DNA of 64,000 nt from the IMG/VR virus record IMGVR_UViG_3300029305_007758; one strand, 5' to 3'. A program made the position numbers and the translations under genes. Every line of letters starts with the position of its first letter. Within the stretch, counting starts at the first letter, position 1. Source of the DNA: a virus (taxonomy: Duplodnaviria; Heunggongvirae; Uroviricota; Caudoviricetes). Shown here piece by piece: positions 628 through 56,770 of the stretch. The notes under the pieces were generated by a model. The model made no database searches. It was not told where the DNA came from and was given only the letters and a program-made list of their open reading frames with translations.

Positions 628-658
628 CTACGTTTTAAGAGTGAATGAACCTTATATA
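628..658 (+). promoter_or_regulatory. motif-A promoter-like element (CTACGTTTT-N10-GAACCTTATATA)
   Basis: Exact motif. Preceded by hairpin plus T-run. About 43 nt upstream of ATG 701. Confidence 0.6.
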
Positions 659-700
659 TTTGTAACAGAAAAATGATATAAAAATAAAGGAGCAATATAT

Positions 701-841
701 ATGTCTTCAGAAAATAAGAAGCGTAAGGCTAAAAATTCACATTTGCATAATGGCGCTGATAAATTAGATGGAAAATTAAAAAGAAACATGTATTTTACGA
801 AACGTCTGAGAATGAAAAACAAAAAAATTGACTTAAATTAG
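701..841 (+). CDS. small basic protein (46 aa, K/R-rich)
   Basis: AAAGGAG RBS 8 nt upstream of ATG 701. Lies downstream of a motif-A promoter (628..658). Stop TAG at 839..841 overlaps the RBS of the next gene. Confidence 0.45.
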   Translation: MSSENKKRKAKNSHLHNGADKLDGKLKRNMYFTKRLRMKNKKIDLN

Positions 842-852
842 GAGGAATAATA

Positions 853-1230
853 ATGACTGATCAGTATAAGTTCGAGAAATTAGTAAAAATGTTAGCAGAA
901 TTGTCAGATGACCATAAATATGATGATGAAATTTATTTGTTTGCAGATAAAGTGGGTGCAATTTGCGAAGCATCAGGGCTTGAATCACCATGTTTTGGAA
1001 TTGCACGTTCACAATGGAGTTGTATTGATTTTTATCCAAACGTTCGTATGTATTCTAATCCTGGTTTGATTAAATTTCATGCAGAATACTACGATGGTAA
1101 TCAAGCACCGTTTATTGTGTGCGAATGGAATGATGATCTTGAGAAACTGGAAATGTTGTTAAAAGAAACATCTGAAACATTATATGAGATGTATCAGGAG
1201 CGATTGAATCGAAAAGGAGCATATTTATGA
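853..1230 (+). CDS. hypothetical protein, tandem paralog 2 (125 aa)
   Basis: AGGAGG RBS. Paralog of 208..555. Confidence 0.65.
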   Translation: MTDQYKFEKLVKMLAELSDDHKYDDEIYLFADKVGAICEASGLESPCFGIARSQWSCIDFYPNVRMYSNPGLIKFHAEYYDGNQAPFIVCEWNDDLEKLEMLLKETSETLYEMYQERLNRKGAYL

Positions 1231-1634
1231 AAAAATATTTGTTAACTTTAGTTATAATGGTTTGTTTGTTTAGTGGATGTGGAAAGTCGAACCAAGCAAC
1301 TATTGATGTGTTAGAAAGATGCAAAATAATTAACTCTACAATTACTGAAACTTCTATTTCTGCAAACAAAGAATATTTTACCATTACATTTGAAAATGGT
1401 TTATTTTATTGCGAAGATCATACAACCGGAAGTGCTGTATATACTATCAAAATTCCGAATAAATGTAATATTGATATGTATTCTGTTATCAAAAGTATTG
1501 CTTCAAATATTACAGAAGAAAACTTTGATAAATTAGAATCAGAAGGTGAAGTGTCCTTTTTCAAAGGATATCGAGAAAACTGGCATTGCTCCAAATCAAC
1601 AGAAGGTAACACTATTAAATATGTACTTAGATAA
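1227..1634 (+). CDS. putative lipoprotein
   Basis: AAAGGAG RBS. Signal peptide with lipobox (LFSGC). ATGA overlap with the upstream gene. Confidence 0.6.
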   Translation: MKKYLLTLVIMVCLFSGCGKSNQATIDVLERCKIINSTITETSISANKEYFTITFENGLFYCEDHTTGSAVYTIKIPNKCNIDMYSVIKSIASNITEENFDKLESEGEVSFFKGYRENWHCSKSTEGNTIKYVLR

Positions 1635-1647
1635 AGGAGATGAAGCG

Positions 1648-2067
1648 ATGGGTGTTTGTTTAAAAGCTAAAAATTCAACTTATACGTTTGATATGGGGTA
1701 TGGTGGATTTCATAATTTACGTTCCAATATTGCCTATGCATTTGATAAAGAATTTGGAGCAGCATATGATGATACAAAAATGTGTCTATTAGATCCGAAT
1801 AAATACAATGCTCGTTTTTGTTCTATTTTATCAGATGATCGATTCAAAAATGAAGACGTTGATATTGTTGATTTTCTTTTTGAATATGATGGTCATGGTA
1901 AATGTGGATATAAAACATGTGGCAAAATTTACAATCTCATCAAAGACATTGATTTTGGTGACAAGATTTTTACATATGCTGCACGTTCAGATGGAAAAGA
2001 TTATGAGAAGTTTAAACTGTTTCTACAAGAATGTTACTCAAAGCGTAGAAACATGGTTTGGGATTAA
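1648..2067 (+). CDS. hypothetical protein (Cys/His-containing, 139 aa)
   Basis: Track ORF 1546..2067 trimmed to the internal ATG at 1648, which has an AAAGGAGA RBS. The longer form would overlap the lipoprotein gene. Confidence 0.55.
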   Translation: MGVCLKAKNSTYTFDMGYGGFHNLRSNIAYAFDKEFGAAYDDTKMCLLDPNKYNARFCSILSDDRFKNEDVDIVDFLFEYDGHGKCGYKTCGKIYNLIKDIDFGDKIFTYAARSDGKDYEKFKLFLQECYSKRRNMVWD

Positions 2068-3749: not shown

Positions 3750-3871
3750 TGAAACAAAAAGATGTTACGAGATTACTTGTAGCATCTTTTTTTTTGCAAT
3801 TTACTTCGTTTCAATAAAAAATGGACCTTATTTTATTTGTAACAAGTAGTTATACAGTTAAGGAGCTGGGA

Positions 3872-4108
3872 ATGAGAAATCAAGAAAATAACGTTAATGA
3901 TTCTATAGTCTTTGTCAATAAAGCTTTTTGCACAATGAATGAAGTTATCAGCTGGTTGAATAAAAATAAAAATAAGGTTATTGATTATAGTTTTTCATAT
4001 GAATCAATCTGTTCAATCCAATTAATTGCAAGAGTAAGAGAAGGAAATGGAAGAACAAGAACAAAAACAATAAAGGAGAAGATATATGAAAGTAAACGAT
4101 ATCGTTAG
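3872..4108 (+). CDS. hypothetical protein (78 aa)
   Basis: AAGGAG RBS before ATG 3872. Downstream of the promoter/terminator block at 3760..3840. Confidence 0.4.
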   Translation: MRNQENNVNDSIVFVNKAFCTMNEVISWLNKNKNKVIDYSFSYESICSIQLIARVREGNGRTRTKTIKEKIYESKRYR

Positions 4109-4795: not shown

Positions 4796-4839
4796 AAAAT
4801 TAATATTAATTGAAGCAACAAATATTGTTGCTTCTTTTT

Positions 4840-4870
4840 CTACGTTTTAAGAACAAATGAGCCTTATATA
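4840..4870 (+). promoter_or_regulatory. motif-A promoter-like element
   Basis: ctacgtttt aagaacaaat gagccttatata. Follows terminator 4812..4839. Confidence 0.6.
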
Positions 4871-7026: not shown

Positions 7027-7057
7027 CAATAAAGGGACGAGAAATCGTCTCTTTTTT

Positions 7058-7088
7058 CTACGTTTTAAGAGAAAATGATCCTTATATT
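7058..7088 (+). promoter_or_regulatory. motif-A promoter-like element
   Basis: ctacgtttt aagagaaaat gatccttatatt. Confidence 0.6.
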
Positions 7089-7124
7089 ATTTAAACATGA
7101 TATACTAAAAAAGGAGTGTTAATA

Positions 7125-7529
7125 ATGAGAACAACAGAAAAAGATATTTTAATGATTTGTAAAGGCCGATACAATCATGATAAGCACGAAACTTTTGAAG
7201 CAGCTTTAGATGCATATTATAGAGAACATTACTTGATTTCAAAAGAAGAAATTCCAACACTTAGTCACAGATTTATGTTGACACTTTGGTTTAATGATTG
7301 CGTGAAAGCATTTTTACAGACAGACACAATGAACAGTTTTTGGTGGCATGTAATTCAAAACGAATCAATGACTGAGCAACATTTTTTAAACAAAGATGGG
7401 TGTGCAGAATTTTACGATGTGTTATATCATAGAATCGTAACATGGTTGACACTTCTTAAGGTAAGAGACGATAATGGTAATTGGATCATTGATTTATCTG
7501 ATTACGAAGGCATTGATTACATAATTTAA
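7125..7529 (+). CDS. hypothetical protein
   Basis: AAGGAG RBS 8 nt upstream of ATG 7125. Downstream of motif A at 7058..7088. Confidence 0.6.
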   Translation: MRTTEKDILMICKGRYNHDKHETFEAALDAYYREHYLISKEEIPTLSHRFMLTLWFNDCVKAFLQTDTMNSFWWHVIQNESMTEQHFLNKDGCAEFYDVLYHRIVTWLTLLKVRDDNGNWIIDLSDYEGIDYII

Positions 7530-9036: not shown

Positions 9037-9053
9037 TACAAAGATTAAAATGA

Positions 9054-9084
9054 AAGACGATACTTTTTGTATCGTCTTTTTCTT
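9054..9084 (+). terminator. Rho-independent terminator
   Basis: agacgatac tttttg gtatcgtct followed by ttttct. Confidence 0.6.
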
Positions 9085-9143
9085 CGTTTCAGACATTATT
9101 GAACCTAATATTATTTGTAATAAATGTAAATAGGAGCGAAAAT

Positions 9144-9730: not shown

Positions 9731-9844
9731 TTTCAAGAAAATAAATAACCTTACAATTCACTTCGTTTTTGTTAGAATTGAACCTTATATATGTATAACA
9801 AAAAAAACAACAAATACTAACATATAGTAGAAAGGAATTTAAAT

Positions 9845-11336: not shown

Positions 11337-11367
11337 CTACGTTTTCACTTAAATTGAACCTTATATC
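11337..11367 (+). promoter_or_regulatory. motif-A promoter-like element
   Basis: ctacgtttt cacttaaatt gaaccttatatc. Confidence 0.6.
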
Positions 11368-12307: not shown

Positions 12308-12338
12308 CTACGTTTTAACATAAACTGATCCTTATAAA
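12308..12338 (+). promoter_or_regulatory. motif-A promoter-like element (a motif B lies about 40 nt upstream)
   Basis: ctacgtttt aacataaact gatccttataaa. aaaccatatttaa at about 12278. Confidence 0.55.
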
Positions 12339-14041: not shown

Positions 14042-14072
14042 CTACGTTTTAAGTATAAATGAACCTTATATA
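14042..14072 (+). promoter_or_regulatory. motif-A promoter-like element upstream of the alarmone-hydrolase gene
   Basis: ctacgtttt aagtataaat gaaccttatata. Confidence 0.6.
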
Positions 14073-21167: not shown

Positions 21168-21275
21168 AATAACAAAAAGATTTTAGACAAAACGAAGTGA
21201 TTGTTATGAAATTACTTCGTTTTTCTTTTATTTGAACCTTATATATGTAATAAATAATGAAAGGTTGGACAAATA

Positions 21276-26495: not shown

Positions 26496-26626
26496 GTATA
26501 ACAAATAGAGATACTACATGACTTTTTGTCTTGTAGTATTTTTTTTGTATAATTCACTTCGTTTTTTTGTAAATTGATCCTTATATTATTATGAATCAAA
26601 TTGATAAACATTAATAGGAGAAAAAA

Positions 26627-30203: not shown

Positions 30204-30279
30204 CGTGACACTTTTTTTTCTTCGTTTTAAATAAAAATGATCCTTATATATTAAAACAAACAAAAGGAGAGTAAAATTA

Positions 30280-31143: not shown

Positions 31144-31243
31144 AAAAAATGAAACTTTTACTACGTTTCTGTTTTAAATGAACCTATTGCATATATCACG
31201 TAAAAAATACGTAGAAAAATTCAAGTCAAAAGGAGACAAACAA

Positions 31244-38632: not shown

Positions 38633-39745
38633 CTAATTCCAATCAAATCCATCTTTTTTATTTCCGTCATCAGTTTTAATATCTGGCCGTTTTCTGATAC
38701 GTTCCAAAAATTGTTCATAAGATTTACGTTCCAAAAGTTCTATTTCATTTAAATCTCTCCAAGTATATGTTACATTATTATTTGTATCAATAGTAATCGT
38801 AAGTATTTTATCTTCTTCTTTTGTTTCCATTGCTTTTGCATAAGCTAATAAAACATTACTTCTTACAACGCTGTCAAATGTTCGGCATCCAAAATTACTG
38901 TTTGCAACTTTAAGTAACTCATCAGTCATACCCTCTGTTAATATAATATCACAGTTGAAGTTACGTTCAATTTCTGTAACAGTTTTTTTGATAATCCGTC
39001 TGATACTAACTTCTGTCAGTTTTCCATAATTTATAATTACTGGGAATCGACCTAATAATTCATATGTACCGCCACTTTCAATCATTGCTTCACGGTCAAC
39101 CGGTGTAAAATGTTCTATTGTTTCTTTATTATTTTCTGTTACAAACCCTAATGTTTTTGATACACTCTCTCGTTTCTTTCTAAAATCATCAAATGATCCA
39201 AGTCCAATAAACATGATATTTGATGTATCCACAACTCCACCAGTTCTACTGTTTAATATTGTGCCTTCCACAATTGTCAACATATTTGACTGAGCCTCTG
39301 CATTTGTATCAAATCCATTGCTATTAAAAGATGGCATCAATTTTTTATCAAATTCATCTAAAAAACAAATACCGATTGCGTCTTCCATATCCATATTAAA
39401 AAATGGAGCACAAATTTCATATGGTTCTGCACCTTTGTACCCAGATGCTGTAAGTAATGATGTGTCAAATGCATAAATTGGCATATCCGGAATTTTATCT
39501 TCAAAATAATCTCGAAGTGCACGATATGTTTCTGTTTTCCCTGATCCAGAAGGTGCGGCTAACAACATATTATTGTTAACCGGTCTTTGTGCAACAATAT
39601 TAATCAAATAATTATAAACATTTGCTACAACAATTTTTAAGTCCGGTTGTCCAATAATTCGTTTTTCCATTGCTGCTAAAAAATCTGTATACTTTGTACT
39701 CATGAGCCAGTTTTCAATCTGTGCTCTAACTTGTTCTGCTCTCAT
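38633..39745 (-). CDS. ClpX/HslU-like AAA+ unfoldase ATPase (no N-terminal zinc finger)
   Basis: Walker A AAPSGSGKTE. DTSLLTASGYKG, compare ClpX D.T.LTEAGYVG. Walker B ICFLDEFDK. Confidence 0.7.
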   Translation of the reverse strand: MRAEQVRAQIENWLMSTKYTDFLAAMEKRIIGQPDLKIVVANVYNYLINIVAQRPVNNNMLLAAPSGSGKTETYRALRDYFEDKIPDMPIYAFDTSLLTASGYKGAEPYEICAPFFNMDMEDAIGICFLDEFDKKLMPSFNSNGFDTNAEAQSNMLTIVEGTILNSRTGGVVDTSNIMFIGLGSFDDFRKKRESVSKTLGFVTENNKETIEHFTPVDREAMIESGGTYELLGRFPVIINYGKLTEVSIRRIIKKTVTEIERNFNCDIILTEGMTDELLKVANSNFGCRTFDSVVRSNVLLAYAKAMETKEEDKILTITIDTNNNVTYTWRDLNEIELLERKSYEQFLERIRKRPDIKTDDGNKKDGFDWN

Positions 39746-39810: not shown

Positions 39811-41139
39811 TTAATCTTCTTTTGGCAAAACATGTTCACTTTGATTACTTGTATCAGAAATGGATGTAATACTGTCAATGATTGTTAAAATGTCGTCATC
39901 ATCTTGCGACTTTGAAAATGTGAGACTACGATTTCGAAGCAATTTATCTTTTCTTTCTTCCGGCTCTGTTCCAGATATCTTTCTTAAAACTGCATTTTTA
40001 AGTTTCTGACCTGCGGAAAACTGTAATCGTCTCACCTCAATTGCATCAATATCTAATTGTTTTGCAACTTCATTTGGATTACATTTTTTATCCAAATCAA
40101 TAATCTCATGGTCATCAATTAATATTTTAAATCCATTAGATAATTCATACACTTTCTGTTCAATTTCTGTTAAACAACGAAAGGCTTCGATTAATTCTTC
40201 TACACGTTCTTGTGACATAATACGCTCTTCCGGCGTTTCAAATCGACTTTGTTTACGTTTGTTTGTAGCACTATTTTCATCATCAATTCGAGTCATTGTA
40301 TTTTCTGCTAAAATTCGAGCTGATGATAATTTAATCTGTTCCGGAGTTAATTCTTCTCCATGACGTTTGCAATAATTTGAAATCATATGAACTGTAGGTT
40401 TAAGTCCTTGTTCCAATAATGCTGTTTGCGCTTTACTTACAATGCGGTCAACTCTCATCGTAGTTTTAGATGCTCTAAAATTCTTCTTTGCTTCAAAATT
40501 ACTGATAGCGTCCTGAATTCTGGTTCGATAATAAGTTGTTAATTCTGCCTTGTTATAATCGTATTTGTCAATATCGTTCCAAATATATACCCAACAATAA
40601 GACATTGCATCTTGTATATCCTCATGCATTTTTGCAATATTTACATAATGATGCGCATGTTTTTTATAAAACTGTTCCACTTTTACTCGCACGAAGTTTC
40701 TAAAAAACATATAAAATGCTTCTTTTGTTCGATTCATGGCTTCTTCTGATGCACTTTTTTCGTAATTCTGAATTGCATCAATAATAAAATGTTGAGCCTC
40801 TAATACATGTTTTTTTGCAAAGAATTCTGCATATTTAATTGCTTCAATTTGTGTTTTTTCTGTCGCAATTCCATAGTATAAATCTTCTGCAATACTAAGA
40901 TCAAAATCACCTGTATATTCGGTCGTTTTTTGTTCTCTTACTTCATCGTTCGTAAATAAAGAATATTCGTTATCATCAAATTCTTCATAATCAACAAAAT
41001 CATCATCTTCCTCTTCGTCAAATAATTCATCTGTTGTATCAAACGTTTCGTCATATTCTTCATCACCAGGGCCATAATCAAACGCCCCAACATCATCAAT
41101 GTCATCATATAAATCGTCTTCTACATACTTTGTTCCCAT
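39811..41139 (-). CDS. divergent sigma-70-family-like factor with acidic N-terminus (tentative)
   Basis: Region-2-like EDIQDAMSYCWVYIWNDIDKYD...TYYRTRIQDAI. Region-4-like HTH NEVAKQLDIDAIEVRRLQFSAGQKLK. Confidence 0.4.
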   Translation of the reverse strand: MGTKYVEDDLYDDIDDVGAFDYGPGDEEYDETFDTTDELFDEEEDDDFVDYEEFDDNEYSLFTNDEVREQKTTEYTGDFDLSIAEDLYYGIATEKTQIEAIKYAEFFAKKHVLEAQHFIIDAIQNYEKSASEEAMNRTKEAFYMFFRNFVRVKVEQFYKKHAHHYVNIAKMHEDIQDAMSYCWVYIWNDIDKYDYNKAELTTYYRTRIQDAISNFEAKKNFRASKTTMRVDRIVSKAQTALLEQGLKPTVHMISNYCKRHGEELTPEQIKLSSARILAENTMTRIDDENSATNKRKQSRFETPEERIMSQERVEELIEAFRCLTEIEQKVYELSNGFKILIDDHEIIDLDKKCNPNEVAKQLDIDAIEVRRLQFSAGQKLKNAVLRKISGTEPEERKDKLLRNRSLTFSKSQDDDDILTIIDSITSISDTSNQSEHVLPKED

Positions 41140-41157: not shown

Positions 41158-41487
41158 TTATTCTTCCTTATTATCGTAAACAAAACATCGTACCGGATAA
41201 TTTTGTTTCATTTGTTTTGAAATAATTACTATTGCTTCATTAATATCTGAAACATTTGTGAGTTTTGTATCAGATATTCTATTTACGTAATTAATAACTG
41301 CAGACTCACTGTCCCAGTTTTTACTTGCTAACGCTTTTTCAAGTGCCAACAACCATTCAACACTGATTCCGTTTCCCATAAATGCTCCTAAAAATACATA
41401 TAAACAAAATGCTACATATATATTAGGATTATTTTTATAAGAAACGAAGTGATTTTTACAGCAAAATAAGAATGACATTTCTGCCAC
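41158..41487 (-). CDS. hypothetical protein
   Basis: 109 aa. Confidence 0.45.
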   Translation of the reverse strand: MAEMSFLFCCKNHFVSYKNNPNIYVAFCLYVFLGAFMGNGISVEWLLALEKALASKNWDSESAVINYVNRISDTKLTNVSDINEAIVIISKQMKQNYPVRCFVYDNKEE

Positions 41488-42837: not shown

Positions 42838-42868
42838 TATAATAGGTTCACGAAAAATCAAAACGTAG
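42838..42868 (-). promoter_or_regulatory. motif-A promoter-like element (minus orientation)
   Basis: Reverse complement reads ctacgtttt gatttttcgt gaacctattat. Confidence 0.55.
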
Positions 42869-43732: not shown

Positions 43733-43902
43733 TTTATTTATCTCCTATTCAAATTCGTGACATATGCAATTTTTGCACTTGTAGTTAATAGGCTCATTTC
43801 GAAACAAAACGTAGTAAAAAGTTTATCTTTTGTGAATCAAAATTTACTGTAAAACGAAGAAAGCGTAACGAAAAATCGCTACGCTTTGTTTTTGTCCGTT
43901 AA

Positions 43903-46030: not shown

Positions 46031-46139
46031 CTCATTTTTAACAAAGATTTATTTGATACATATAATAGGTTCATAGTCTATCAAAACGTAGTAAAAAAAA
46101 ATCGTCCGCTATTTGCTAACGAACGATTTTTGTTACGAT

Positions 46140-47302: not shown

Positions 47303-47333
47303 AATATAAGGTTCAATTTGTGTTAAAACGAAG
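47303..47333 (-). promoter_or_regulatory. motif-A promoter-like element upstream of the XRE regulator
   Basis: Reverse complement reads cttcgtttt aacacaaatt gaaccttatat. Confidence 0.55.
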
Positions 47334-47377: not shown

Positions 47378-48118
47378 TTATAATTTTGGCTCAAATATTG
47401 CTCTTGGCTTCAATTTAAATTTGTTATCATGATGACGTTTCATAATTGCTTGTTTAACTCTTATATCGCTACATAATCCGGTGCGAATAAAACGATCTAA
47501 GTCTTTATAACTGAATCCAAAGTTGTCTTCATCTGTTTTACCACAAAGACCATCGGACGGAGTTTTGTCGACCAAATAATCTGGCAATCCTAAGTAATGT
47601 CCGATTGCAATTACCTCTGTCGCAGTTAATCCGCCAAGTGGAGCAAAATCACCTTCACCATCTCCGCCAATTGTAAAATATCCAATATAATCTTCGGATA
47701 AATTACATGTGTTTACCATGCGACCATTTTCACATTGGCAAATGGCGCGAATTACTTTGGTACGTTCACGTGGTGGCAAGTTTTCTCGGGCCTGTTTTGT
47801 GATTTCGATGCCGCATTTTTCAAGCTCACGATAAGTAGCTTCTACACCGTCTTTAATGTTTACAGTGTAATTTTTGATACCTAAGTATTCGCAAACAGCA
47901 ATTGAGTCTGCAATATCTGCCTGTTCGCCATTTGGCAACATTACACCGATGACTCGTTCTTTTCCTAATGCACGAACGCATAATGCTGCTGCAATGGTGG
48001 AGTCTTTGCCACCCGAGATGCCTAACGCAGCATTGCAATCTGACCCATTTTTCTTGAACCATGCCTGGATCCAACTAACCAGATCATTTGTTGTTTGTTC
48101 TACGTTGAAATTGTACAT
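47378..48118 (-). CDS. nadE: NH3-dependent NAD+ synthetase
   Basis: PP-loop LGISGGKDSTIAAALC (SGGxDS). Size and overall layout fit NadE. Start trimmed to MYNF, which has a GAGGAAG RBS. Confidence 0.85.
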   Translation of the reverse strand: MYNFNVEQTTNDLVSWIQAWFKKNGSDCNAALGISGGKDSTIAAALCVRALGKERVIGVMLPNGEQADIADSIAVCEYLGIKNYTVNIKDGVEATYRELEKCGIEITKQARENLPPRERTKVIRAICQCENGRMVNTCNLSEDYIGYFTIGGDGEGDFAPLGGLTATEVIAIGHYLGLPDYLVDKTPSDGLCGKTDEDNFGFSYKDLDRFIRTGLCSDIRVKQAIMKRHHDNKFKLKPRAIFEPKL

Positions 48119-48263
48119 ATTTCTTCCTCGCTTCTTAATCAATCTGTTTTGCACCTAACAGGTTCAATAACCCCGTTTCAAATGCAGTTGTTACACATTT
48201 TTCTGCGTTATCAACTTCATAGTTTACTGAATCAACTCTAACTTCGAAACACTAGGATAAATC

Positions 48264-49469
48264 CTAGTGTTCCATTCTCCAATTGATACAACGCTGTAAG
48301 TAATCAACATATGCATCATTTTTACACATACCTTTACCTGGAGTATCACTGATTTTTGCACAATCACTACCATTCACATTTGTTACTTTCATAACAATGT
48401 TTAAAGCTGGCGCAAATGTATCATTTGAGATATAAGTTCCAATTCCAAATGCAACTTTTGCTCTGCCACAGAAGTGACGCGCAATTTTATCTGCCTTTTC
48501 AAAGTTTAAACTGTCACTAAATAACAGTGTCTTTGTTTTTGGATCGATACCAAGTGATTCATAATGACGAATCATTTTTTCGCCCCATTCAATTGGATCA
48601 CCACTATCATGGCGTACACCGCTAAAAAGTGATGCAAATGTTAACTGAAAATCTTTTAAGAATACATCAGTTGTAATTGTGTCAGTTAACATGATTCCAT
48701 TTAATACTCCGTATTCTTTAACCCATGCTTCCATTGTGTACCAATTTGAATAAGCAGGATTGTGTTTCGGATTACCCTGACCAATTGCCATATTGAGCTC
48801 ATGCGCCATGGTTCCGACAGCAGTCAGTCCAAATTTCTTTGCCAGATATACATTACTTGTTCCAACAAAATTGCTGCAACCATACTTTGTTTCAGCTAAG
48901 CGTTTTACAGCATATTCCTGTGCCTCAGCTGATAAACGTCTACGAAGACCAAATTCACTGAAATTTGCTAAGTAAAGTGGACCACCAACAGCAATCTTCT
49001 TTAACTTTTCTTCGAAATGTTCTTTGAAGCTAATAAGCAATTCATCATAATCATACATCATACGGAAATATACTTCATTTACGATTGCAAGCACCGGAAT
49101 TTCATACATAGATGTATTGAGCCAAGCGCCTTTTGCTTCAATGGATAAACCACATTCAGCATCTGTTGTGATTGTAAAATCTTCGAAACGAGGACTCCAG
49201 AGACGTAAGAAATCAATGTATGACTTTTTGAGCCATTTAATTGATGCAAGATACTGTAATTCTTCTTCAATAAATCGAAGATCGCAGTACGCTTTAATCT
49301 GTTCAGTAATCTCTTCCACAATTGCTGGTGTGAAATATACATCCTTGTTACGACATTTAAATGTCCATGTTGTTTCATAATCAGAAAACTGATGGAAGAT
49401 ACACTGACCCATGCTAAGTTTGTACAAATCTGTCTCTAAGAGACTTGTAATAATTGGATTGAGTTTCAT
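48264..49469 (-). CDS. pncB: nicotinate phosphoribosyltransferase
   Basis: SLLETDLYKLSMGQCIFHQF, GTSNVYLAKKFGLTAVGTMAHE, GVRHDSGDPIEWGEKMIRHYESLGIDPKTKTLLFSD and NIVMKV..NG...AKISDTPGK are collinear with the conserved blocks of class-I PncB. 401 aa. AAGGAG RBS. Motif B at 49516..49525. Confidence 0.9.
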   Translation of the reverse strand: MKLNPIITSLLETDLYKLSMGQCIFHQFSDYETTWTFKCRNKDVYFTPAIVEEITEQIKAYCDLRFIEEELQYLASIKWLKKSYIDFLRLWSPRFEDFTITTDAECGLSIEAKGAWLNTSMYEIPVLAIVNEVYFRMMYDYDELLISFKEHFEEKLKKIAVGGPLYLANFSEFGLRRRLSAEAQEYAVKRLAETKYGCSNFVGTSNVYLAKKFGLTAVGTMAHELNMAIGQGNPKHNPAYSNWYTMEAWVKEYGVLNGIMLTDTITTDVFLKDFQLTFASLFSGVRHDSGDPIEWGEKMIRHYESLGIDPKTKTLLFSDSLNFEKADKIARHFCGRAKVAFGIGTYISNDTFAPALNIVMKVTNVNGSDCAKISDTPGKGMCKNDAYVDYLQRCINWRMEH

Positions 49470-49515
49470 TGTTTGTTACTCCTTTTCTTTGTTTATTTTG
49501 TATTTGTTACGATAT

Positions 49516-49525
49516 TAAATATGGT
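49516..49525 (-). promoter_or_regulatory. motif-B promoter-like element upstream of pncB
   Basis: taaatatggt on plus strand, which is accatattta on the gene strand. Confidence 0.5.
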
Positions 49526-49590
49526 ACATATATAAGAAACGAAGTTATTTGTAACAACTTTTGTCACAAATAATCTCGTTTCATTATGTA

Positions 49591-50730
49591 TTACACAGCC
49601 GGTTTACTCATTTCAATCAGTTTCTGTCTCATATCTGCTTCAATTTTCTGTAATTCAGCTTCTGCTGCAACACGTTTCTTGCGACCATCTTCCTGAATTT
49701 TCATTACTTCATCCAATGTTGAAATCAATGTCTGATTTGTGGCCTGTAATGTTTCAATATCTACAATGCCTCTTTCTGCTTCCTTTGCAGTTTCAATTGT
49801 TGCAAGTTTTAACTGTTCCGCGTTTTTCTTAAGTAAGGCATTTGTCATATCACTTACCTGTCGCTGAGCTGCTGCAGCTTCATTTGCATGGTCAACACCA
49901 ATTGCAATTACCATCTGACTCTTCCATAAAGGAATCGTATTCATTAATGTTGATTGGATTTTATCAGACATAATCGTATCATTATTTTGAATTAAACGAA
50001 TCTGTGACGCCATTTGTAACGATACAGTTCTGGAAAGTTCAAGATCGTATATTTTCTTTTCGAATCGATTACACATTTCTGCAAAATCTTTTGCTCTCTG
50101 TGTATCTTCCGGCAAACCACTCTGTTCTGCTTTTTTAAGTAACTCCGGTAATTCTACAGTACGTGCCTGTTCCAATTTTGTTTTGCCAGCAAGGATGTAC
50201 ATAGATAACTCTTTGAAGTATAACAGATTCAAATCATACATCTTATCGAGCATAGCCGCATCTTCTATCAATTCTTCTCGATGCGATTCCATGACGGCAC
50301 AAATTTTGCTAATGTTTTCTTCTGCTTTTGCATACTTTGTTTTAATCATAGCAAGTTTGTTACTATTCCTTCTAAAGAAACCTAAGAATCCGCGGGCTGG
50401 TTCGTTGAATTCCTTTAATTCTGTTACAACATCTGTCAATAACTCTCCAATTTCACCCATATCTTTGGTACGAACGCTACTTAATGCTGTTTCAGAGAAA
50501 TCAGCCATCTTTTTCTGACTGGTAGAACCATACTGCATCACCAATTTTGTATCATTTAAATTAATTTTCTGGGCAAATTCATCCACCATTTTCTGTTCCT
50601 CGGGTGTTAAATTCACTTCTTTTGGAACTTCCACTGGTGTAGCTATTACAACTTCTTCTTTTGTTCTCACATCATTAACTGTATCAAATGTTAATGTTGG
50701 CATTTCTGTTAACATTTTTTCTAATTCCAT
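49591..50730 (-). CDS. telA: TelA-like (toxic anion resistance / KlaA family) protein
   Basis: EEQKMVDEFAQKINLNDTKLVMQYGSTSQKKMADFSETALSSVRTKDMGEIGELLTDVVTELKEF is the TelA signature region. GGAGG RBS. Confidence 0.75.
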   Translation of the reverse strand: MELEKMLTEMPTLTFDTVNDVRTKEEVVIATPVEVPKEVNLTPEEQKMVDEFAQKINLNDTKLVMQYGSTSQKKMADFSETALSSVRTKDMGEIGELLTDVVTELKEFNEPARGFLGFFRRNSNKLAMIKTKYAKAEENISKICAVMESHREELIEDAAMLDKMYDLNLLYFKELSMYILAGKTKLEQARTVELPELLKKAEQSGLPEDTQRAKDFAEMCNRFEKKIYDLELSRTVSLQMASQIRLIQNNDTIMSDKIQSTLMNTIPLWKSQMVIAIGVDHANEAAAAQRQVSDMTNALLKKNAEQLKLATIETAKEAERGIVDIETLQATNQTLISTLDEVMKIQEDGRKKRVAAEAELQKIEADMRQKLIEMSKPAV

Positions 50731-50732
50731 TT

Positions 50733-51371
50733 TTATACCTCCGAAAAATCACTTTTTGTCAAACCATCTTTTGCAAGCACTGTTTTAAGCACCTGTGCGT
50801 CTGTTGTAATATCAATGACATCTACCTGAAATAACTGATTCAAAAGTTCTGTAAACGCTTCATTGACTACATCCATTGTCTTTTCAATTTCTATTTTTGC
50901 AGCAACAACTTCTGTCCCAGGATTTCGAACTTCATTAAATTTCAAATATCCCTGCAGCAATTTAATTGTCATTGGTAAATAATGATTCATTAATTTATAC
51001 ATCTTTGATATTTGGTCCGGGGATTCTTTCAATCTTGCAAAAATCTCTGTCAAAAGATTTTCTGTACAATTCATTTTTTCAGAAATTAATTCTCCTGGAA
51101 TCATATCATTAAGATTATGAATTTTATGAATATATTCGTTCCCTTTTTGAATCATAGATTCGATTTCGCTTAAAGTTTGTTCCATTGGTTTCGTTTCAGC
51201 TTTGAGCTTTGTCTCAGAAACGCAAATTACATTTGCATATGGATCAATTACATCTGTTTCACTATTATTTAATAACGTATTAAGTTGTTTAAAGTTGTTA
51301 TTATCAATTGCTTCTGCTACAGCATTTTTGAATTCTTTACTTGGTTTAAACGGATACCTATTTTTGCTCAT
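50733..51371 (-). CDS. hypothetical protein, possibly XpaC-like (the usual TelA partner in Firmicutes)
   Basis: Immediately upstream of telA with a 2 nt gap. About 210 aa. Assignment is from context and size only. Motif A at 51411..51441. Confidence 0.3.
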   Translation of the reverse strand: MSKNRYPFKPSKEFKNAVAEAIDNNNFKQLNTLLNNSETDVIDPYANVICVSETKLKAETKPMEQTLSEIESMIQKGNEYIHKIHNLNDMIPGELISEKMNCTENLLTEIFARLKESPDQISKMYKLMNHYLPMTIKLLQGYLKFNEVRNPGTEVVAAKIEIEKTMDVVNEAFTELLNQLFQVDVIDITTDAQVLKTVLAKDGLTKSDFSEV

Positions 51372-51410
51372 AATGACTCCTTGTTTGTTACAAACTTTTA
51401 TTTTTCTTTA

Positions 51411-51441
51411 TATATTAGGATCAAACTTTCTTAAAACGTAG
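51411..51441 (-). promoter_or_regulatory. motif-A promoter-like element upstream of the XpaC-like/telA pair
   Basis: Reverse complement reads ctacgtttt aagaaagttt gatcctaatata. Confidence 0.55.
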
Positions 51442-51474
51442 CAAAACCCACGGATTTCCCATGGGTTTGTTGTT

Positions 51475-51924
51475 TTAATTATAATTGTAAAATTCTTGCA
51501 ACGAATATAAATCCTCATAGACACATGGCGTTCCATCAGAATTTGTAAGTGGAGTCATTGAACCACCATCATCGCTATATACCGTATATAAATAAGTATT
51601 CCCTGTTTCAAGATCAACAAGTGTGTACATATATGCGTATCCTTTTGCATATATTGTTTCCTTTTCTACCGGCACAAAACGTACATTGCCTCGGAGTTCT
51701 ACAGAATATCCATCAGGATCTTTTAAATGAAATTCTCTTGTTGTGTTCGTATCATCTGAATTGTAACTATTATTACTTGAATCGTAGTTGTTTGATTCAT
51801 AACCATTACTTGCTGCATAGTCCGAATAGTTTTCATGACTAATTGATGATGTCTGACCACAACCTGTTACGGTAATTATTGTTACAATCACTAATAATGT
51901 CGTTATTACACGTTTTGTATTCAT
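51475..51924 (-). CDS. putative lipoprotein, Asn/Ser/Tyr-rich
   Basis: Lipobox VTGC. Motif B at 51971..51981. Confidence 0.55.
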   Translation of the reverse strand: MNTKRVITTLLVIVTIITVTGCGQTSSISHENYSDYAASNGYESNNYDSSNNSYNSDDTNTTREFHLKDPDGYSVELRGNVRFVPVEKETIYAKGYAYMYTLVDLETGNTYLYTVYSDDGGSMTPLTNSDGTPCVYEDLYSLQEFYNYN

Positions 51925-52041
51925 ATTTATATTCTCCTTTATAATTAATAGATGTATTTTATTGCATTCTTAAATATGGTTCATCAGATAACTCTTTAAA
52001 AAAAATACGAAGCAGGTTAATCTGCTCCGTATTCATTTGTT

Positions 52042-52935
52042 TTAGAAAATCAATGATGCTTTTGTATCCCATTTACTGTATAAATGCCCGTCCGGACGAA
52101 GAATGAGATACTTCACACTGTTTTTACATTCTTTGGACTGTGCCATAGAATCTTCATCAATTACTGTTGAGAAACCTTCCCAATCATAACGGTCTGCACC
52201 ATATTCAAGTGTATCTAAATATTTTCCCTCTGACTTAACTTTATTCTTAAAATACGAAATAAAGTCATGTGTTAAAGATGTAACATTTTCTTTAATCCAA
52301 TCAGCCTGGGGAGTACCATCTTCTGATGTCCATAATGCACGGCACGTAATCTGATCTGCACCAAGTGTTTTGCAACGATTAATAACGGTCTCCAATGCTA
52401 CTGGTGCATCTTCTAACCCTGCAACCATTTTATCATTCATATTAAGACAGATTCGAAGATTCATATTGTGCGCTTTGATTTTGTAACAAAGACCTTCGAT
52501 ACACAAGTTTCCGTCTGGAGTCTGAATCATCTCTTTGTTAAGTAGGTCATCATCAAGACATGCAACCGAAATTGCCATTGTTGTTACACCAATTTCCTGT
52601 AAGAAATCTAACATGTCATCATCGATAAATGCTCCGGATGTCTGCATTTCAATATTAAGAAATGGGTCTTTTAATGATTTGTTTACAACACCAAGTACGC
52701 GTAAGAAATCTTTGTTCTGCTGTGGTTCATTGTTACCTGTAAGCATCAATGTATTGCAGCCATTATCTCTGGCGTACTGTAATCGTTTTTTCATATCTTC
52801 AATGTAACTCATAGTTGTTGCAATTGGTGTGAAGCGGTCTTCATATTCGCCACCATGCATTTTGCTGCAACAGAATTCGCAGTCATTAATGCAACGTTTT
52901 GCTGGAACGCAAATACTTAAGCTCTGAATATTCAT
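52042..52935 (-). CDS. radical SAM enzyme of unknown specificity
   Basis: CINDCEFC (Cx3Cx2C) near the N-terminus, then LTGNNEP (a GGEP-like SAM motif). Start is 1 nt from the pncA stop. Terminator at about 52001..52050. Confidence 0.7.
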   Translation of the reverse strand: MNIQSLSICVPAKRCINDCEFCCSKMHGGEYEDRFTPIATTMSYIEDMKKRLQYARDNGCNTLMLTGNNEPQQNKDFLRVLGVVNKSLKDPFLNIEMQTSGAFIDDDMLDFLQEIGVTTMAISVACLDDDLLNKEMIQTPDGNLCIEGLCYKIKAHNMNLRICLNMNDKMVAGLEDAPVALETVINRCKTLGADQITCRALWTSEDGTPQADWIKENVTSLTHDFISYFKNKVKSEGKYLDTLEYGADRYDWEGFSTVIDEDSMAQSKECKNSVKYLILRPDGHLYSKWDTKASLIF

Positions 52936-52936
52936 C

Positions 52937-53494
52937 TTATCGCACCTCCACCTGACACATCTTCATTGCTTCAATAGCTGTTTTGTGTGACTCTGGAGTT
53001 ACGCATGCGCATGCTTTTTCGATAACGCAAATCTTTGTTTCCGGCACCGCTGCTTTCGCAATAAGTACGTTACTGATAACACAGATTCCGGTACAAACGC
53101 CACAGAAATGAATTTCGTCATAATCAGAAAATTCAAATTTAAGTTTATGTGCCAAAATTTCAGAACCAAATGTTGGTTTCTCAAGAACTATTCCTTTTAT
53201 ATATTTAGACGCAGATGTTAATTTTGAAGTCTGATTTACAATTGCTTCTTTAATATCTTTCTGAATCTCATGACCTTTTGTACCTCTGATACAATGTGGA
53301 ACCGGTAAATTTCTACCTTCCTGTGTTTCCATGTAATTTTCGCCATGAGTATCCTGAGTCGTAATAATTGCATCATACTCACCTGATTCAATAAGCTTAA
53401 TTACTTCCGGTACTGTTGCTGCGCATTCAGCGTTTCCCAATGGTCCTGTTAAAAAGTCGTTCTGCATGTCCACGATTACTAATGCTTTTTTCAT
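52937..53494 (-). CDS. pncA: nicotinamidase (isochorismatase-fold)
   Basis: ALVIVDMQNDF (catalytic Asp). PHCIRGTKGHEI, compare PncA PHCVSGTPGADF (metal site). FCGVCTGICV, compare ATDHCV (catalytic Cys). Confidence 0.8.
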   Translation of the reverse strand: MKKALVIVDMQNDFLTGPLGNAECAATVPEVIKLIESGEYDAIITTQDTHGENYMETQEGRNLPVPHCIRGTKGHEIQKDIKEAIVNQTSKLTSASKYIKGIVLEKPTFGSEILAHKLKFEFSDYDEIHFCGVCTGICVISNVLIAKAAVPETKICVIEKACACVTPESHKTAIEAMKMCQVEVR

Positions 53495-53522
53495 AATTTT
53501 TGTTTCCTTTCATTTACATAGA

Positions 53523-54095
53523 TTAATTGTTATTATTTATCATGTTTCGATAAAACGGCACCGACATTAACTCGGCACGAAGTCTATCGTACATTTTATG
53601 AAGTCTCGGATTTACAAGTGCCATCCATTCTTCGCGGCGATCTTCAACCATGAGCTGTCTTAACATTGTTGCAGAAATTGGAAGTTCCGCTCTGTTAATA
53701 ATAAGCTCAGTTGTGTTTTTAAGATCTTCTTTCGCAAACCAGCTGGAGCGACTCTCATCGTTTCCGTAAATCATGATTTCCGGGTTCTTATAGATATAAC
53801 GATGCACGTTATCTAATAAATAGCGCCCCCATTCTGGACGAATATCATCTTCATTTGTCATATCAGCAAGTCCGTAAATCATAATGTTTGGCGAATCACC
53901 GTAGATTTCCTTTAACATTTCGGTTCGGGTGTTGATGTTAAGTGGATTTCTTTCGGTACCACATTCCTGTGAACTACCTACTAAAATAATCAAACGATCA
54001 CACAACAATAAACCTGTATCAACAAGTTTTTCATGTCCCTTATGAAACGTCTGAAATCTACCAACAATTAATCCTGTATCGTATGGTTTTCCCAT
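53523..54095 (-). CDS. nadM: NadM/NadR-type nicotinamide/nicotinate mononucleotide adenylyltransferase
   Basis: GRFQTFHKGH is identical in pattern to archaeal/bacterial NMNAT GRFQPFHKGH ((H/T)xGH nucleotidyltransferase). IILVGSS. AAAGGAG RBS. Motif B at 54140..54150. Confidence 0.85.
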   Translation of the reverse strand: MGKPYDTGLIVGRFQTFHKGHEKLVDTGLLLCDRLIILVGSSQECGTERNPLNINTRTEMLKEIYGDSPNIMIYGLADMTNEDDIRPEWGRYLLDNVHRYIYKNPEIMIYGNDESRSSWFAKEDLKNTTELIINRAELPISATMLRQLMVEDRREEWMALVNPRLHKMYDRLRAELMSVPFYRNMINNNN

Positions 54096-54139: not shown

Positions 54140-54150
54140 TAAATATGGTT
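54140..54150 (-). promoter_or_regulatory. motif-B promoter-like element upstream of the nadM-pncA-radical SAM operon
   Basis: taaatatggtt on plus strand. Confidence 0.5.
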
Positions 54151-54179
54151 TCCAGCTTCCGTTTCATAATTGATGCTTC

Positions 54180-55121
54180 TTATCTATGTGAGCATGGGTA
54201 TGGATCCCAACACTCTTCCTCGCAAGGGTCATACTCTTCTTTTAAATATGAAGTGGCTGCATCAATAGCTTTATTATATGCATCTCTAAAATCATCATAT
54301 TTATCACCAGTTAACGATAATTTACATGAATTTAAATTGGTTGAAATGTCATTATCATTTGTTTTTTCTTTCATTTCTGCATATCTACGTTTACGTTTTT
54401 CGTTTAACTGTTGTATCCGTTCATTTCTTTGTTTCTGCAGTTCTTCTTCTGATATAAATGTTGTAACGGTTTTACCTGTAGAACCAAAATTTTCTAAGTC
54501 CTTAGATTTTGAAACACTTTCTACAGGAGCGATTTTTGTCCAGTTTATACCAAAAATAACATCACATTCCTTTGACACTAAAGGGTTAATCATTGTATTT
54601 AATGCTTCTGAATCTCCAGTATCATCCCAGTTTATGAATAGGTTGCCATTGTAATCATTTTGCTTGATTTTAAAACTTTCATTTTGAATTTTATGTAACA
54701 AAAGCAAACGATCATGCGAATTGTAAATATAATCCGTATCAAGCAATTCTGTTACATCCATGTATCGAATTTTATTTTCTAAAACATCACAAAGCCAGTA
54801 AAAATGTTCCAAACCTTCTTTTAATTCACAAAGATTTTCTGTGCTTGTGGGGTCTGTAAAAAATATAGTAACAATCATCAATAAACTTGACACCGCGAAA
54901 TTACACATCCCAAATATTGTTAAAAATATTGAAATTAGTGACACCCCAAGAAACCCTATGTAAAATATCGTTTTAATCTTTTCAAATGCATAGGACTTAG
55001 GTGTATATACTTTGTCTTTATATGCATTTAAAAACACTTTTACAATTTCTTCTTTTGTAACATCAATTTTCACTTCATTAATTGTTAATTTTTGTTCTGT
55101 ATGAATATCGTAACTTGTCAT
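54180..55121 (-). CDS. membrane protein with Cys/Trp-rich C-terminus
   Basis: AAGGAGA RBS before MTSYDI. Motif A at 55140..55170. Confidence 0.5.
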   Translation of the reverse strand: MTSYDIHTEQKLTINEVKIDVTKEEIVKVFLNAYKDKVYTPKSYAFEKIKTIFYIGFLGVSLISIFLTIFGMCNFAVSSLLMIVTIFFTDPTSTENLCELKEGLEHFYWLCDVLENKIRYMDVTELLDTDYIYNSHDRLLLLHKIQNESFKIKQNDYNGNLFINWDDTGDSEALNTMINPLVSKECDVIFGINWTKIAPVESVSKSKDLENFGSTGKTVTTFISEEELQKQRNERIQQLNEKRKRRYAEMKEKTNDNDISTNLNSCKLSLTGDKYDDFRDAYNKAIDAATSYLKEEYDPCEEECWDPYPCSHR

Positions 55122-55261
55122 AAAAATCTCCTTATTACAATTAATAAGGTGCAACTTTTACTAAAACGTAGTAAAACTTACTTCTAACGAATGTAAATAT
55201 TTTTAAAACATAGTAAAAAAAACTGTCACAAGTATTTTTGTAACAGTTTTTGTATATCCAA

Positions 55262-56434
55262 CTATTCAATTTCTGTAATAATACCAACGCTTACTGTAAT
55301 ATCAACTTCTTGATTCAATTCATATTGTTCCCAAATAAACTGATTGTCACAATAATATGTATACGTTTTATCTTTTGATTCTACATATACATCGAAACAA
55401 TAAGATTCATTTTCATTTTTGACACGTTCATTACTGTCTAGTTCATAATCCGGCCAATATGGAACATTATTAATACCTGCGCTTTCTTCGGTACGGTCAT
55501 ATACCCATCGCTCTATCTCGTAATAATACTTTGTATCATATACCGGAACATCTTTGTAAACAGCTTCTTCATAATATTCGGTATGATATTCAGTTCGATA
55601 CTTTGGTGTTTGTGTTACATGTTCAGTAAATGTTCCATTTCCATTGTCACTATATGAAACATGTTCGTCATATCCATCAAATACTTGTTCTGCAACCTGA
55701 CGGGACTTTGTTTCATAATGACTGAAAACTGATTCATATTTCCTAATTTCATTATTAGTATATTTTAGCCGTCCGCCGCTAGGAACCCTGTCCCATGCAC
55801 TTTCTGTTACAGTTTTGTATTCTTCAATACTTATTTCTCGTTCCCATGTTTTTTCTGAGACAACACCTTCGTACTGTCGTGGCGATAGTAACCAAATAAG
55901 TCCTGCAATTATAAGTGCAACTAACGTAGTAACACCTAAAACTGCACCAATTTTTATACTCCATTCACGCAACTTTGAATTATGTGTTTTTGATGTAGTT
56001 TTCTTTTGTTCAGCTAATGTATACGGAAATTCATCAATTGGATTTGTAACAAATGATGATTCAATATCTTTTGTTTCATAAATATCCGAATCATATGAAT
56101 TTGTAACAAAAGTTTCTTTTTCTTCTTTTCTTGTTTCAGCTTCTCTCAACTCAAAATAATCTTTTGTTTCTTTTTCTCTTGAAGCTCCGCAATTTTTACA
56201 ATACTTAAACTGTGCATTATTTAGTGTGGTGCAATAATCACAGGTCCAATCCGGATCGGTTCCAACTTTTTTGATTTCATCTTCTAAAAGATACCGTTTC
56301 TTTTGTCCCAGATAAAATTTTGTATCTTTATCCTGCGGATGACCACAATTTGGGCAATACTTCTGTAATCCACCAATAGCATCTGCACTACAGTATTTAC
56401 AATTCCATAATCCTTCTACAATTCGTTCTGACAT
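55262..56434 (-). CDS. double zinc-ribbon single-pass membrane protein
   Basis: CKYCS...CPNCG and CDYC...CKNCG. One TM. Confidence 0.55.
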   Translation of the reverse strand: MSERIVEGLWNCKYCSADAIGGLQKYCPNCGHPQDKDTKFYLGQKKRYLLEDEIKKVGTDPDWTCDYCTTLNNAQFKYCKNCGASREKETKDYFELREAETRKEEKETFVTNSYDSDIYETKDIESSFVTNPIDEFPYTLAEQKKTTSKTHNSKLREWSIKIGAVLGVTTLVALIIAGLIWLLSPRQYEGVVSEKTWEREISIEEYKTVTESAWDRVPSGGRLKYTNNEIRKYESVFSHYETKSRQVAEQVFDGYDEHVSYSDNGNGTFTEHVTQTPKYRTEYHTEYYEEAVYKDVPVYDTKYYYEIERWVYDRTEESAGINNVPYWPDYELDSNERVKNENESYCFDVYVESKDKTYTYYCDNQFIWEQYELNQEVDITVSVGIITEIE

Positions 56435-56445
56435 AATTACTCCTA

Positions 56446-56667
56446 TTACTGGATCTCACCATAACTTGTTACGTCACAAAAACCTCTTCTTGCAAGTTCG
56501 TAACAAATTTGATTACAAGTTTCAATTGACAAATTCGAAATATACCAATTATTGTCATCTGTATCAACGAATTTAATACCTTCATAATCATCATCATAAC
56601 ATGCTGATACAATTTCTAATGTTACAAACTCGTTTGTGTCTTCATATGCTAATGCTACAATTCTCAT
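56446..56667 (-). CDS. hypothetical protein (73 aa)
   Basis: Motif A at 56695..56725. Confidence 0.45.
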   Translation of the reverse strand: MRIVALAYEDTNEFVTLEIVSACYDDDYEGIKFVDTDDNNWYISNLSIETCNQICYELARRGFCDVTSYGEIQ

Positions 56668-56770
56668 CTATAAACCTCCTAATTTTTCATATATAATATT
56701 AGGTACAAAAATATTTGAAACGTAGTAAAATTTAAAACAAAAATAAGAGCCAAAAAGCTGGCCCTTATCT

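Follow-up and report, generated by a model that had tools for sequence, protein, structure and literature searches.

A recurrent bipartite motif, probably a private promoter class, on a conjugative-type element that encodes a divergent sigma factor

Introduction

A 31-nucleotide (nt) motif, here named motif A, recurs ahead of genes in a 64,000-nt stretch of metagenomic DNA (the window), which is the reverse complement of positions 22868-86867 of the JGI metagenome contig Ga0318466_10004279 (106,228 bp). Motif A is likely a compact bipartite promoter class (class A) that is private to the mobile element on this contig and is read by core RNA polymerase together with a sigma factor encoded by the element itself. 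The motif is asymmetric and rigid, points to the downstream gene and lies 20-60 nt before ribosome-binding sites; it thus behaves like a promoter. Two candidate readers are encoded by the element, a divergent sigma-70 family protein of 442 amino acids (aa) at 39811-41139 and, just outside the window, a 290-aa protein resembling extracytoplasmic function (ECF) sigma factors. Besides motif A, another promoter-like motif (class B) occurs, and the two classes mark nearly every transcription unit of an element whose genes mostly lack a known family.

In the proposed mechanism, CTaCGTTTT would occupy a -35-like position and TwATATa a -10-like position, with TGAaCC immediately 5′ to the latter. The start of transcription would lie about 6-10 nt past motif A, giving a 5′ leader of 20-50 nt carrying a GGAGG-type ribosome-binding site. 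The T-tract at the upstream edge would double as the U-tract of the preceding unit's terminator, so that units would be packed as terminator-promoter cassettes. The reader is predicted to be host core RNA polymerase carrying an element-encoded sigma factor, not host sigma-A. A mobile, apparently conjugative element would in this way insulate its transcription from that of the host, by means of its own sigma factors and terminator-promoter cassettes.

Sequence and geometry of motif A

Allowing up to two mismatches, the window contains 20 matches to the pattern CTACGTTTT-N10-GAACC, whereas dinucleotide-preserving shuffles contain 0.24 on average and never more than 3. A sequence-only reading of the same DNA had described the motif as repeated with a constant 10-nt gap, and this description holds: all 19 sites that it listed are among the matches, and no site deviates in spacing. 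The plus-strand coordinates given there were exact or within about 12 nt (the refined positions are 9082, 9761, 21215, 26557, 30220 and 31161), and on the minus strand it gave the lower coordinate of each 31-mer. The one remaining match, at 19000 on the minus strand, is attributed to chance; it lacks the CC pair and lies antisense within a gene.

A count matrix built from the 19 sites reveals invariant bases at C1, T2, C4, G5, T6, T7, T8, T19, G20, C23, C24, T25 and T28. A21, A27, A29 and T30 are nearly invariant, and a T-tract is found at -4 to -1. The resulting consensus is TTTTw-CTaCGTTTT-N9-TGAaCC-TwATATa. Conservation is confined to positions 1-8 and 19-30 around a spacer of fixed length (0 of 19 window sites vary) whose columns hold almost no information, which is the bipartite layout of sigma-70 family promoters. 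The source contig was rebuilt to 80.7 kb from overlapping loci, and a weight-matrix scan of these 80.7 kb found 24 sites above 20 bits, whereas the best score in 20 shuffles was 14. All 24 lie between genes and point at the gene that follows. Two of them are additional window sites, at 3804 on the plus strand (31 bits) and 41449 on the minus strand (24 bits), which brings the window total to 21. These sites are listed below; L027 is a locus of a related element described in a later section.

628..658, plus strand: motif A, 44.6 bits
3804..3834, plus strand: motif A, 31.2 bits; absent from the earlier list; implies a gene start at 3872, not 3821
4840..4870, plus strand: motif A, fused to the terminator at 4812-4834
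7058..7088, plus strand: motif A, terminator-fused; near-identical to L027:622 in the relative
9082..9112, plus strand: motif A, fused to the terminator at 9052-9080
9761..9791, plus strand: motif A; a decayed copy lies just upstream, at about 9723-9753
11337..11367, plus strand: motif A, terminator-fused
12308..12338, plus strand: motif A; a class B core at 12288 stands immediately before it
14042..14072, plus strand: motif A, top score (45 bits); fused to the terminator at 14010-14041; heads the HD_4 operon
21215..21245, plus strand: motif A, orthologous to L027:10762 in the relative
26557..26587, plus strand: motif A, found by pattern and weight matrix
30220..30250, plus strand: motif A, terminator-fused
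31161..31191, plus strand: motif A, orthologous to L027:16756; implies an SPFH gene start at 31244, not 31178
41419..41449, minus strand: weak motif A, 24 bits, TA for TG; directly before the small open reading frame (ORF) and the sigma gene
42838..42868, minus strand: motif A, heads the operon containing the sigma gene
43784..43814, minus strand: motif A, found by pattern and weight matrix
46061..46091, minus strand: motif A, terminator-fused
47303..47333, minus strand: motif A, terminator-fused; heads the HTH_3 regulator gene
51411..51441, minus strand: motif A, terminator-fused; heads the TelA operon
55141..55171, minus strand: motif A, found by pattern and weight matrix
56695..56725, minus strand: motif A, found by pattern and weight matrix

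One further interpretation of the motif, in which TGAACC acts as an ECF-type -35 element with a -10 downstream, was rejected since the recurring downstream word GTAACA lies at variable distance.

Placement and association with terminators

All 21 window sites are intergenic, and all are co-oriented with the gene that follows, an orientation that the sequence-only reading had noted. The same reading placed the end of the motif 25-45 nt before the start codon. The motif does precede the start throughout, and the measured distance is wider, 19-59 nt with a median of 39. This range includes three start-codon corrections (3821 to 3872, 31178 to 31244 and 41478 to 41379) at genes whose called starts overlap a motif A site; each corrected start, the likelier of the two, is the next in-frame ATG with a GGAG-type ribosome-binding site. 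Motif-guided annotation thus corrects at least three start codons.

A hairpin of -10 kcal/mol or below lies within 15 nt upstream of 14 of 22 motif A sites, and in 10-11 of these 14 the T-run of the terminator is the motif's own TTTTT. The fusion to an upstream terminator that had been called usual is therefore real and applies to about half of the sites. TTTTA is still present at sites without a hairpin, which indicates that the T-tract belongs to motif A. Terminators are enriched in the window as a whole (25 against 6.3 expected).

Terminator stems at 4812-4834, 9052-9080, 9698-9722, 14010-14041 and 17418-17445, together with those before 3804, 47333 and 628, fall into sequence families, GACGATAC...GTATCGTC and GATGTTACAG...CTGTAGCATC. 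The 628 site retains only the 3′ half of a family-type stem. These resemblances suggest that terminator-promoter modules have spread by duplication.

Motif A in a related element and in public collections

The closest relative of the element is contig Ga0318466_10005333 from the same sample (loci L001 and L027). Its counterpart of the 442-aa sigma is 51-54% identical to that of the window, and its coupling protein 48% identical. Motif A is found at 11 places in the 42 kb examined, with the same invariant columns and identical spacing (zero variation in the nine sites tested for layout). Spacers have diverged, and the -10 half is shifted to TG(G/A)ACC-TAATAAT, compared with TGAACC-TTATATA in the window. 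Some sites are orthologous: window 21215, after the coupling-protein gene, corresponds to L027:10762, and window 31161, before a 549-aa SPFH gene, to L027:16756. Only the blocks have been conserved at approximately 50% protein divergence, which indicates selection on the blocks.

A separate observation concerns window 7040-7130 and L027:600-700, where promoter, leader and gene start are near-identical between elements of the same sample that otherwise share about 50% protein identity. Recent exchange between co-resident elements is suggested by this segment.

For database scans a strict form of the pattern was used, which 12 of the 19 window sites satisfy. It returned one match in 596 Gb of reference genomes, none in IMG/VR and seven singletons in JGI metagenome contigs. 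These scattered matches are isolated, lie on unrelated contigs mostly of higher GC, and were judged to be chance. No array of motif A was found in the three public DNA collections scanned, including 185,579 reference genomes. No sequenced organism in these collections thus uses the motif as a regulon signal, which favors a reader encoded by the element.

Nature of the element

The window has a GC content of about 31%, a strong strand-linked GC skew, two convergent gene blocks and strong ribosome-binding sites of the GGAGG type. The sequence-only reading had attributed the motif to a phage, and this attribution was rejected. Neither the 50,697 phage records nor the 72,556 plasmids searched contained a near-identical match to the window, and no phage or IMG/VR relatives were found. 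Pfam and PHROG matches across 80 kb include no capsid, portal, terminase or tail gene, and the PHROG matches that do occur are generic. Gene content is instead of the conjugative type: a VirD4-like coupling protein of the CD1115 conjugation family (E = 9e-63, 212.6 bits, below the curated cut-off of 250), PcfJ and a DnaG/DUF3854 primase. A type IV coupling protein accompanied by accessory conjugation genes is what characterizes conjugative plasmids and integrative conjugative elements of Firmicutes. The presence of conjugative genes and the absence of phage structural genes therefore lead to the element being read as conjugative and not as a phage. No relaxase or mating channel was seen within the examined part of the contig, and the window encodes no tRNAs.

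Replication-type genes are also encoded, namely a 1380-aa DNA polymerase III alpha, a 5′-3′ exonuclease and an SSB-like protein. The remaining genes include a giant protein of more than 1486 aa that carries a membrane segment, a GGDEF and EAL pair, an NAD-salvage cluster, TelA, SPFH proteins, two BlaI-like repressors and dozens of ORFans; Pfam searches of ten neighboring ORFans returned nothing usable. The element, about 106 kb in size, is plasmid-like and probably conjugative, and is read as either a conjugative plasmid or an integrative conjugative element. Its host is read here as a low-GC Firmicute of the gut or rumen.

Two divergent sigma candidates

Motif A does not fit canonical sigma-A promoters, in agreement with the sequence-only reading. 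The hexamer at the -35 position, TACGTT or ACGTTT, matches at no more than one or two of six bases, and the window shows no excess of sigma-70-type sites (108 observed, 112 expected). The same reading proposed a phage-encoded or phage-modified specificity factor and named the protein at 39811-41139 as a candidate. The non-sigma-A character of the signal and the sigma identity of that protein both stand; the phage origin of the factor does not, since the element is not a phage, and the assignment of this sigma to motif A is not established and may be wrong, as class B accompanies its family and a second sigma candidate lies nearby. The genes concerned are as follows:

39811..41139, minus strand: divergent sigma-70 family protein, 442 aa, with regions 2, 3 and 4; candidate reader of motif A
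41158..41379, minus strand: small ORF, 73 aa after start correction, preceding the sigma gene
38633..39745, minus strand: ClpX-like AAA+ ATPase, directly after the sigma gene
-1710..-838 relative to the window (L007:7438-8310), minus strand: ECF-like sigma candidate, 290 aa, 838 nt before the window start

The N-terminal extension of the 442-aa protein is acidic, and its C-terminal tail is conserved. As a single sequence the protein matches Pfam Sigma70_r2 below the cut-off (E = 7e-4) and matches nothing in the PDB. Its family is rare, with 44 representatives among 1.84 billion. A profile of 37 family members matches SigA, FliA and RpoS chains in the PDB over regions 2-4 (E = 3e-16 to 1e-9), the Pfam r2, r3 and r4 models each match subsets of the 37 members, and NCBIfam TIGR02937 matches the 442-aa protein itself (E = 2.4e-10). 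Taken together, these matches identify it as a real and very divergent member of the sigma-70 family. A structure predicted from a three-sequence alignment was too poor to use (pLDDT 59), and the profile match to PDB sequences was used instead. Searches by tblastn found no match in the 72,556 plasmids or in phages, no relatives were found in IMG/VR, and a hidden Markov model search detected no paralogue in the contig or the related loci. The family is uncharacterized, and orthogonal sigma/promoter pairs of this kind are of possible use in Firmicute synthetic biology.

The gene for the 442-aa sigma sits behind the class A sites 42868 and 41449, and its counterpart in the relative is likewise preceded by class A. 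A small ORF of about 61-71 aa precedes the sigma gene in six of six other loci examined, and a ClpX-like AAA+ ATPase follows it in four of the six. Of the other two, L024 has a 335-aa gene without a recorded family in that place, and the short L021 contig ends before it. The small ORF, sigma and ATPase thus form a triad at 38633-41379 (minus strand), and the sigma tail LLRNRSLTFSKSQDDDD..IIDSIT.I.D is conserved. The ClpX-like ATPase might remodel or degrade the sigma factor.

An inverted repeat, TTGTACA-N17-TGTACAA, is located at 42890-42935 (minus strand), just 5′ of the class A promoter that heads the sigma operon, and is a possible operator for one or the other BlaI-like repressor (10174-10503 or 36016-36327). 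The second of these repressor genes (36016-36327) has a canonical TG-extended TATAAT promoter.

The 290-aa candidate scores just under the curated cut-off for Sigma70_r4 (24.0 against 24.1 bits) and below that for TIGR02937 (E = 9.5e-9, 35.1 against 42.9 bits, residues 74-285). It has a weak PHROG sigma match and no PDB sequence match, and tblastn found nothing similar in plasmids or phages. A class B promoter precedes its gene, and a divergently oriented class A operon extends from there into the start of the window. The counterpart in the relative, 269 aa at L001:12535-13344 on the minus strand, is also behind a class B promoter. The two proteins are alignable in region 4.2 only, with 44% identity over 39 residues and a shared helix, MTEGGARY/F. 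NCBIfam scans of 20 unannotated proteins found no second sigma in the distant relatives. Neither sigma gene was found to have a canonical sigma-A promoter ahead of it.

A second promoter-like class

Class B has the consensus ACCATATTTA, or (g/a)tACCATATTTAw, with ten invariant bases and no fixed -35 element. About 29 gene-oriented copies are present in the 80.7 kb, 38-56 nt before start codons and often after a terminator. Those in the window are given by the first C of CCATATTTA:

Class B, plus strand: 10518, 17466, 19756, 23168, 24791, 25242, 25446, 29297, 29848, 32886, 33197
Class B, minus strand: 8527, 35830, 38586, 43366, 45532, 47020, 49524, 51979, 54148, 62227

Of the intergenic gaps above 60 nt, nearly all contain a site of one class or the other, and the two classes rarely occur together. 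Class B precedes the genes for polymerase III alpha, the primase, PcfJ, the coupling protein, the SSB-like protein, the 5′-3′ exonuclease and NAPRTase, while class A precedes mostly ORFan operons, HD_4, HTH_3, the TelA operon and the sigma operon. Common to the two classes are a CC-N-TAT core and an A-rich start region in which GTAACA recurs. In kind, class B is analogous to T4 late promoters (gp55) and to extended -10 promoters, in which a single near-invariant word in the -10 region, with no fixed -35, serves many genes. The word itself differs from that of class B, and the analogy concerns class B and not motif A.

Loci encoding the 442-aa family carry class B throughout. CCATATTTA is found in L001 and L027 of the close relative and in L023, whose sigma is 34% identical, and one-base variants occur in L022 (CCATGTTTA, sigma 31% identical) and L024 (ACATATTTA, 30%). 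Class B, and not class A, therefore co-occurs with the 442-aa family in all relatives examined. In the distant loci a second class precedes the sigma gene, with a layout like that of class A and another -35 word: TTTACA-N13/14-TGTCC-TATAT in L022 and TTGYCA-N14-GGTAC-TTATATA in L023.

Mixed arrangements of the two classes are also seen. A class B core at 12288 stands directly before the class A site at 12308, and class A followed by class B precedes L001:7572 (L001:7450-7560). At the class B site 49524 (minus strand), a class A-type CTTCGTTTC block lies upstream, one base closer than in class A.

Alternative readings of motif A

In one alternative, motif A is a host promoter. Sigma-A or an alternative host sigma factor would direct transcription, and CTACGTTTT...TGAACC would be the site of an activator or repressor encoded by the element, like T4 MotA boxes or IncP global operators. 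The downstream TATATA or AATAAT does resemble a -10 hexamer, and the window encodes small DNA-binding proteins, including the two BlaI-like repressors and one HTH_3 protein. However, the motif has no dyad, contains neither a sigma-A -35 hexamer nor a TG at -15/-14, and keeps its upstream block fixed to the base relative to the -10, where region 4 of a sigma factor would bind. The lack of a motif array among the reference genomes further argues against a host regulon, and a host promoter is accordingly improbable.

Still less probable, and very much so, is a repeated DNA or RNA element without promoter function. Such a repeat could mark a cassette boundary or a site of recombination, serve in RNA processing, or be left over from a mobile repeat that moved together with the terminators. 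The sequence families among neighboring terminator stems, through which modules may have spread by duplication, and the one site that is near-identical in two elements of the same sample are compatible with a repeat of this type. However, neither flanks nor spacer are conserved among copies, orientation and distance to the ribosome-binding site are strict, and it is only the three blocks that persist between the two close elements. In the intergenic gaps that lack motif A, class B takes the corresponding place. Nor does motif A behave as an RNA element: its folding is unremarkable (mean z = -0.09 over 22 sites), no Rfam family matched in the window, and a reading based on RNA structure was rejected on these grounds. 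A private promoter class thus remains the preferred reading of motif A.

Assignment of the sigma factors to the two classes

Tentatively, the ECF-like 290-aa protein would read class A and the 442-aa sigma would read class B, an assignment under which the two sigma genes would be wired reciprocally. It draws on the co-occurrence of class B with the 442-aa family in every relative examined, and on the lack of any other sigma found in the distant loci. The rigid, information-rich and bipartite class A would suit a two-domain sigma factor, and the extended -10-type class B one that possesses region 3. Between the two close elements, the class A -35 block and the region 4.2 helix of the 290-aa protein have both been kept; drift is seen in the class A -10 half and likewise in the remainder of the 290-aa protein. 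In the 442-aa protein, region 2 is nearly unchanged, and so is the class B core.

The opposite pairing, with each sigma gene activating itself, is nearly as likely. It is a distinct possibility, though not the favored one, that the 442-aa sigma reads motif A and activates its own operon, with class B left to the 290-aa protein or to another factor. The sigma operon and its counterpart in the relative are headed by class A, region 4.2 of the 442-aa protein is well conserved and could read a -35 block, and the promoters of distant sigma genes keep a class A-like geometry with a changed -35 word while the region 4.2 helix also varies among clades. SigN at PsigN3 of plasmid pBS32 is a precedent for such self-activation (PMC6751061). 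On the other side, it is class B that accompanies the 442-aa family in the relatives, and no second sigma was found in their loci to explain class B. The closest two proteins are also about 52% identical throughout, with an identical class B core, whereas the class A -10 half differs between their elements (TTATATA and TAATAAT). The CTACGTTT word, which is the class A -35 block, is unchanged between them.

Several points weigh against the reciprocal assignment, or against the wider proposal of class A as a private promoter with a sigma factor of its own. Both sigma assignments are circumstantial. Alternative sigma factors often self-activate, and since the class A sites 42868 and 41449 head the operon of the 442-aa sigma, self-activation would make that sigma the reader of class A. 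The -35 words TTTACA and TTGYCA of the second class in distant loci could equally have co-evolved with region 4 in the 442-aa family. The scores of the 290-aa protein fall short of curated cut-offs, and the sequence examined amounts to 80.7 kb of the 106-kb contig. It is also possible that a single holoenzyme reads both classes, given their shared CC-N-TAT core and A-rich start region.

A more far-reaching scheme, rather unlikely as a whole, would join two private classes and two divergent element sigma factors through reciprocal wiring into a positive-feedback switch that seizes host core RNA polymerase, with the ClpX-like ATPase as a possible gatekeeper. If true, this two-sigma wiring would be a new regulatory logic for plasmid activation.

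Comparison with known promoter systems

The nearest parallel is found on plasmid pBS32 of Bacillus subtilis, which encodes SigN (ZpdN), a divergent sigma-70 factor with approximately 19 promoters confined to the plasmid, one of them before its own gene (PMC6751061). SigN promoters have the form ATTTACGTTT-N8-9-CAGATATAAAT and head operons for replication, nucleotide metabolism and ORFans (PMC6751061). The present element resembles this regulon in having a divergent sigma factor, compact promoters confined to the element and a sigma gene behind such a promoter. The -35 words are almost the same, TTTACGTTT for SigN and CTACGTTTT here. However, motif A has 19 nt from CG to CC where SigN promoters have 13 nt, so that the -35 to -10 region is 5-6 nt longer here, and the -10 word differs (CCAGATATAAAT for SigN); motif A is thus not a SigN promoter. 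Beyond general sigma features, homology between the 442-aa family and SigN was not detected either (hhalign probability 0.5%, E = 0.13, and no tblastn match in the 72,556 plasmids). The element also differs from pBS32 in its conjugative-type gene content and in its second private promoter class.

Another example is the late promoters of phage SPO1, CGTTAGA-N17-19-GATATT, which are read by gp34 with gp33 (PMC3601020). They are likewise bipartite and distinct from sigma-A promoters, with a -35 that contains CGTT and a -10 that contains ATAT. In both cases the reader, known there and proposed here, is a sigma factor of a mobile element, and the sigma gene lies beside a small partner gene. Motif A differs in its spacer of 14-15 nt, in the additional invariant TGAaCC block and in belonging to an element that is not a phage, and no phage homologue of either sigma was found that would make it a gp34-type factor. 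Promoters of ECF (group 4) sigma factors share the high information content and rigid block spacing, and their reader may similarly consist of regions 2 and 4 only; the blocks of motif A depart from the usual GGAAC...CGTC pattern and order, and the 290-aa candidate falls under the curated cut-offs. Given that geometry and proteins differ from SigN, and spacing and proteins from SPO1, motif A is a new consensus for an uncharacterized sigma factor on an uncharacterized element, although the arrangement itself is known in kind.

Other genes of the element

The HD_4 gene (14105-14767) encodes a protein like small alarmone hydrolases, and hundreds of proteins share 65-75% identity with it, on contigs that reach 670 kb in length. 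Capture from the host clade is the probable origin of the gene, which offers a clue to host identity. Locus L025, reached through an HD_4 homologue, proved to be an unrelated element that carries neither class A nor class B promoters. The NAD-salvage cluster extends over 47378-54095 on the minus strand and comprises NAD synthase, NAPRTase, an isochorismatase-family protein, a CTP_transf_like protein (possibly a nucleotidyltransferase) and a radical SAM protein. A TelA-like gene adjoins this cluster, and the GGDEF and EAL genes lie side by side at 56771-60279.

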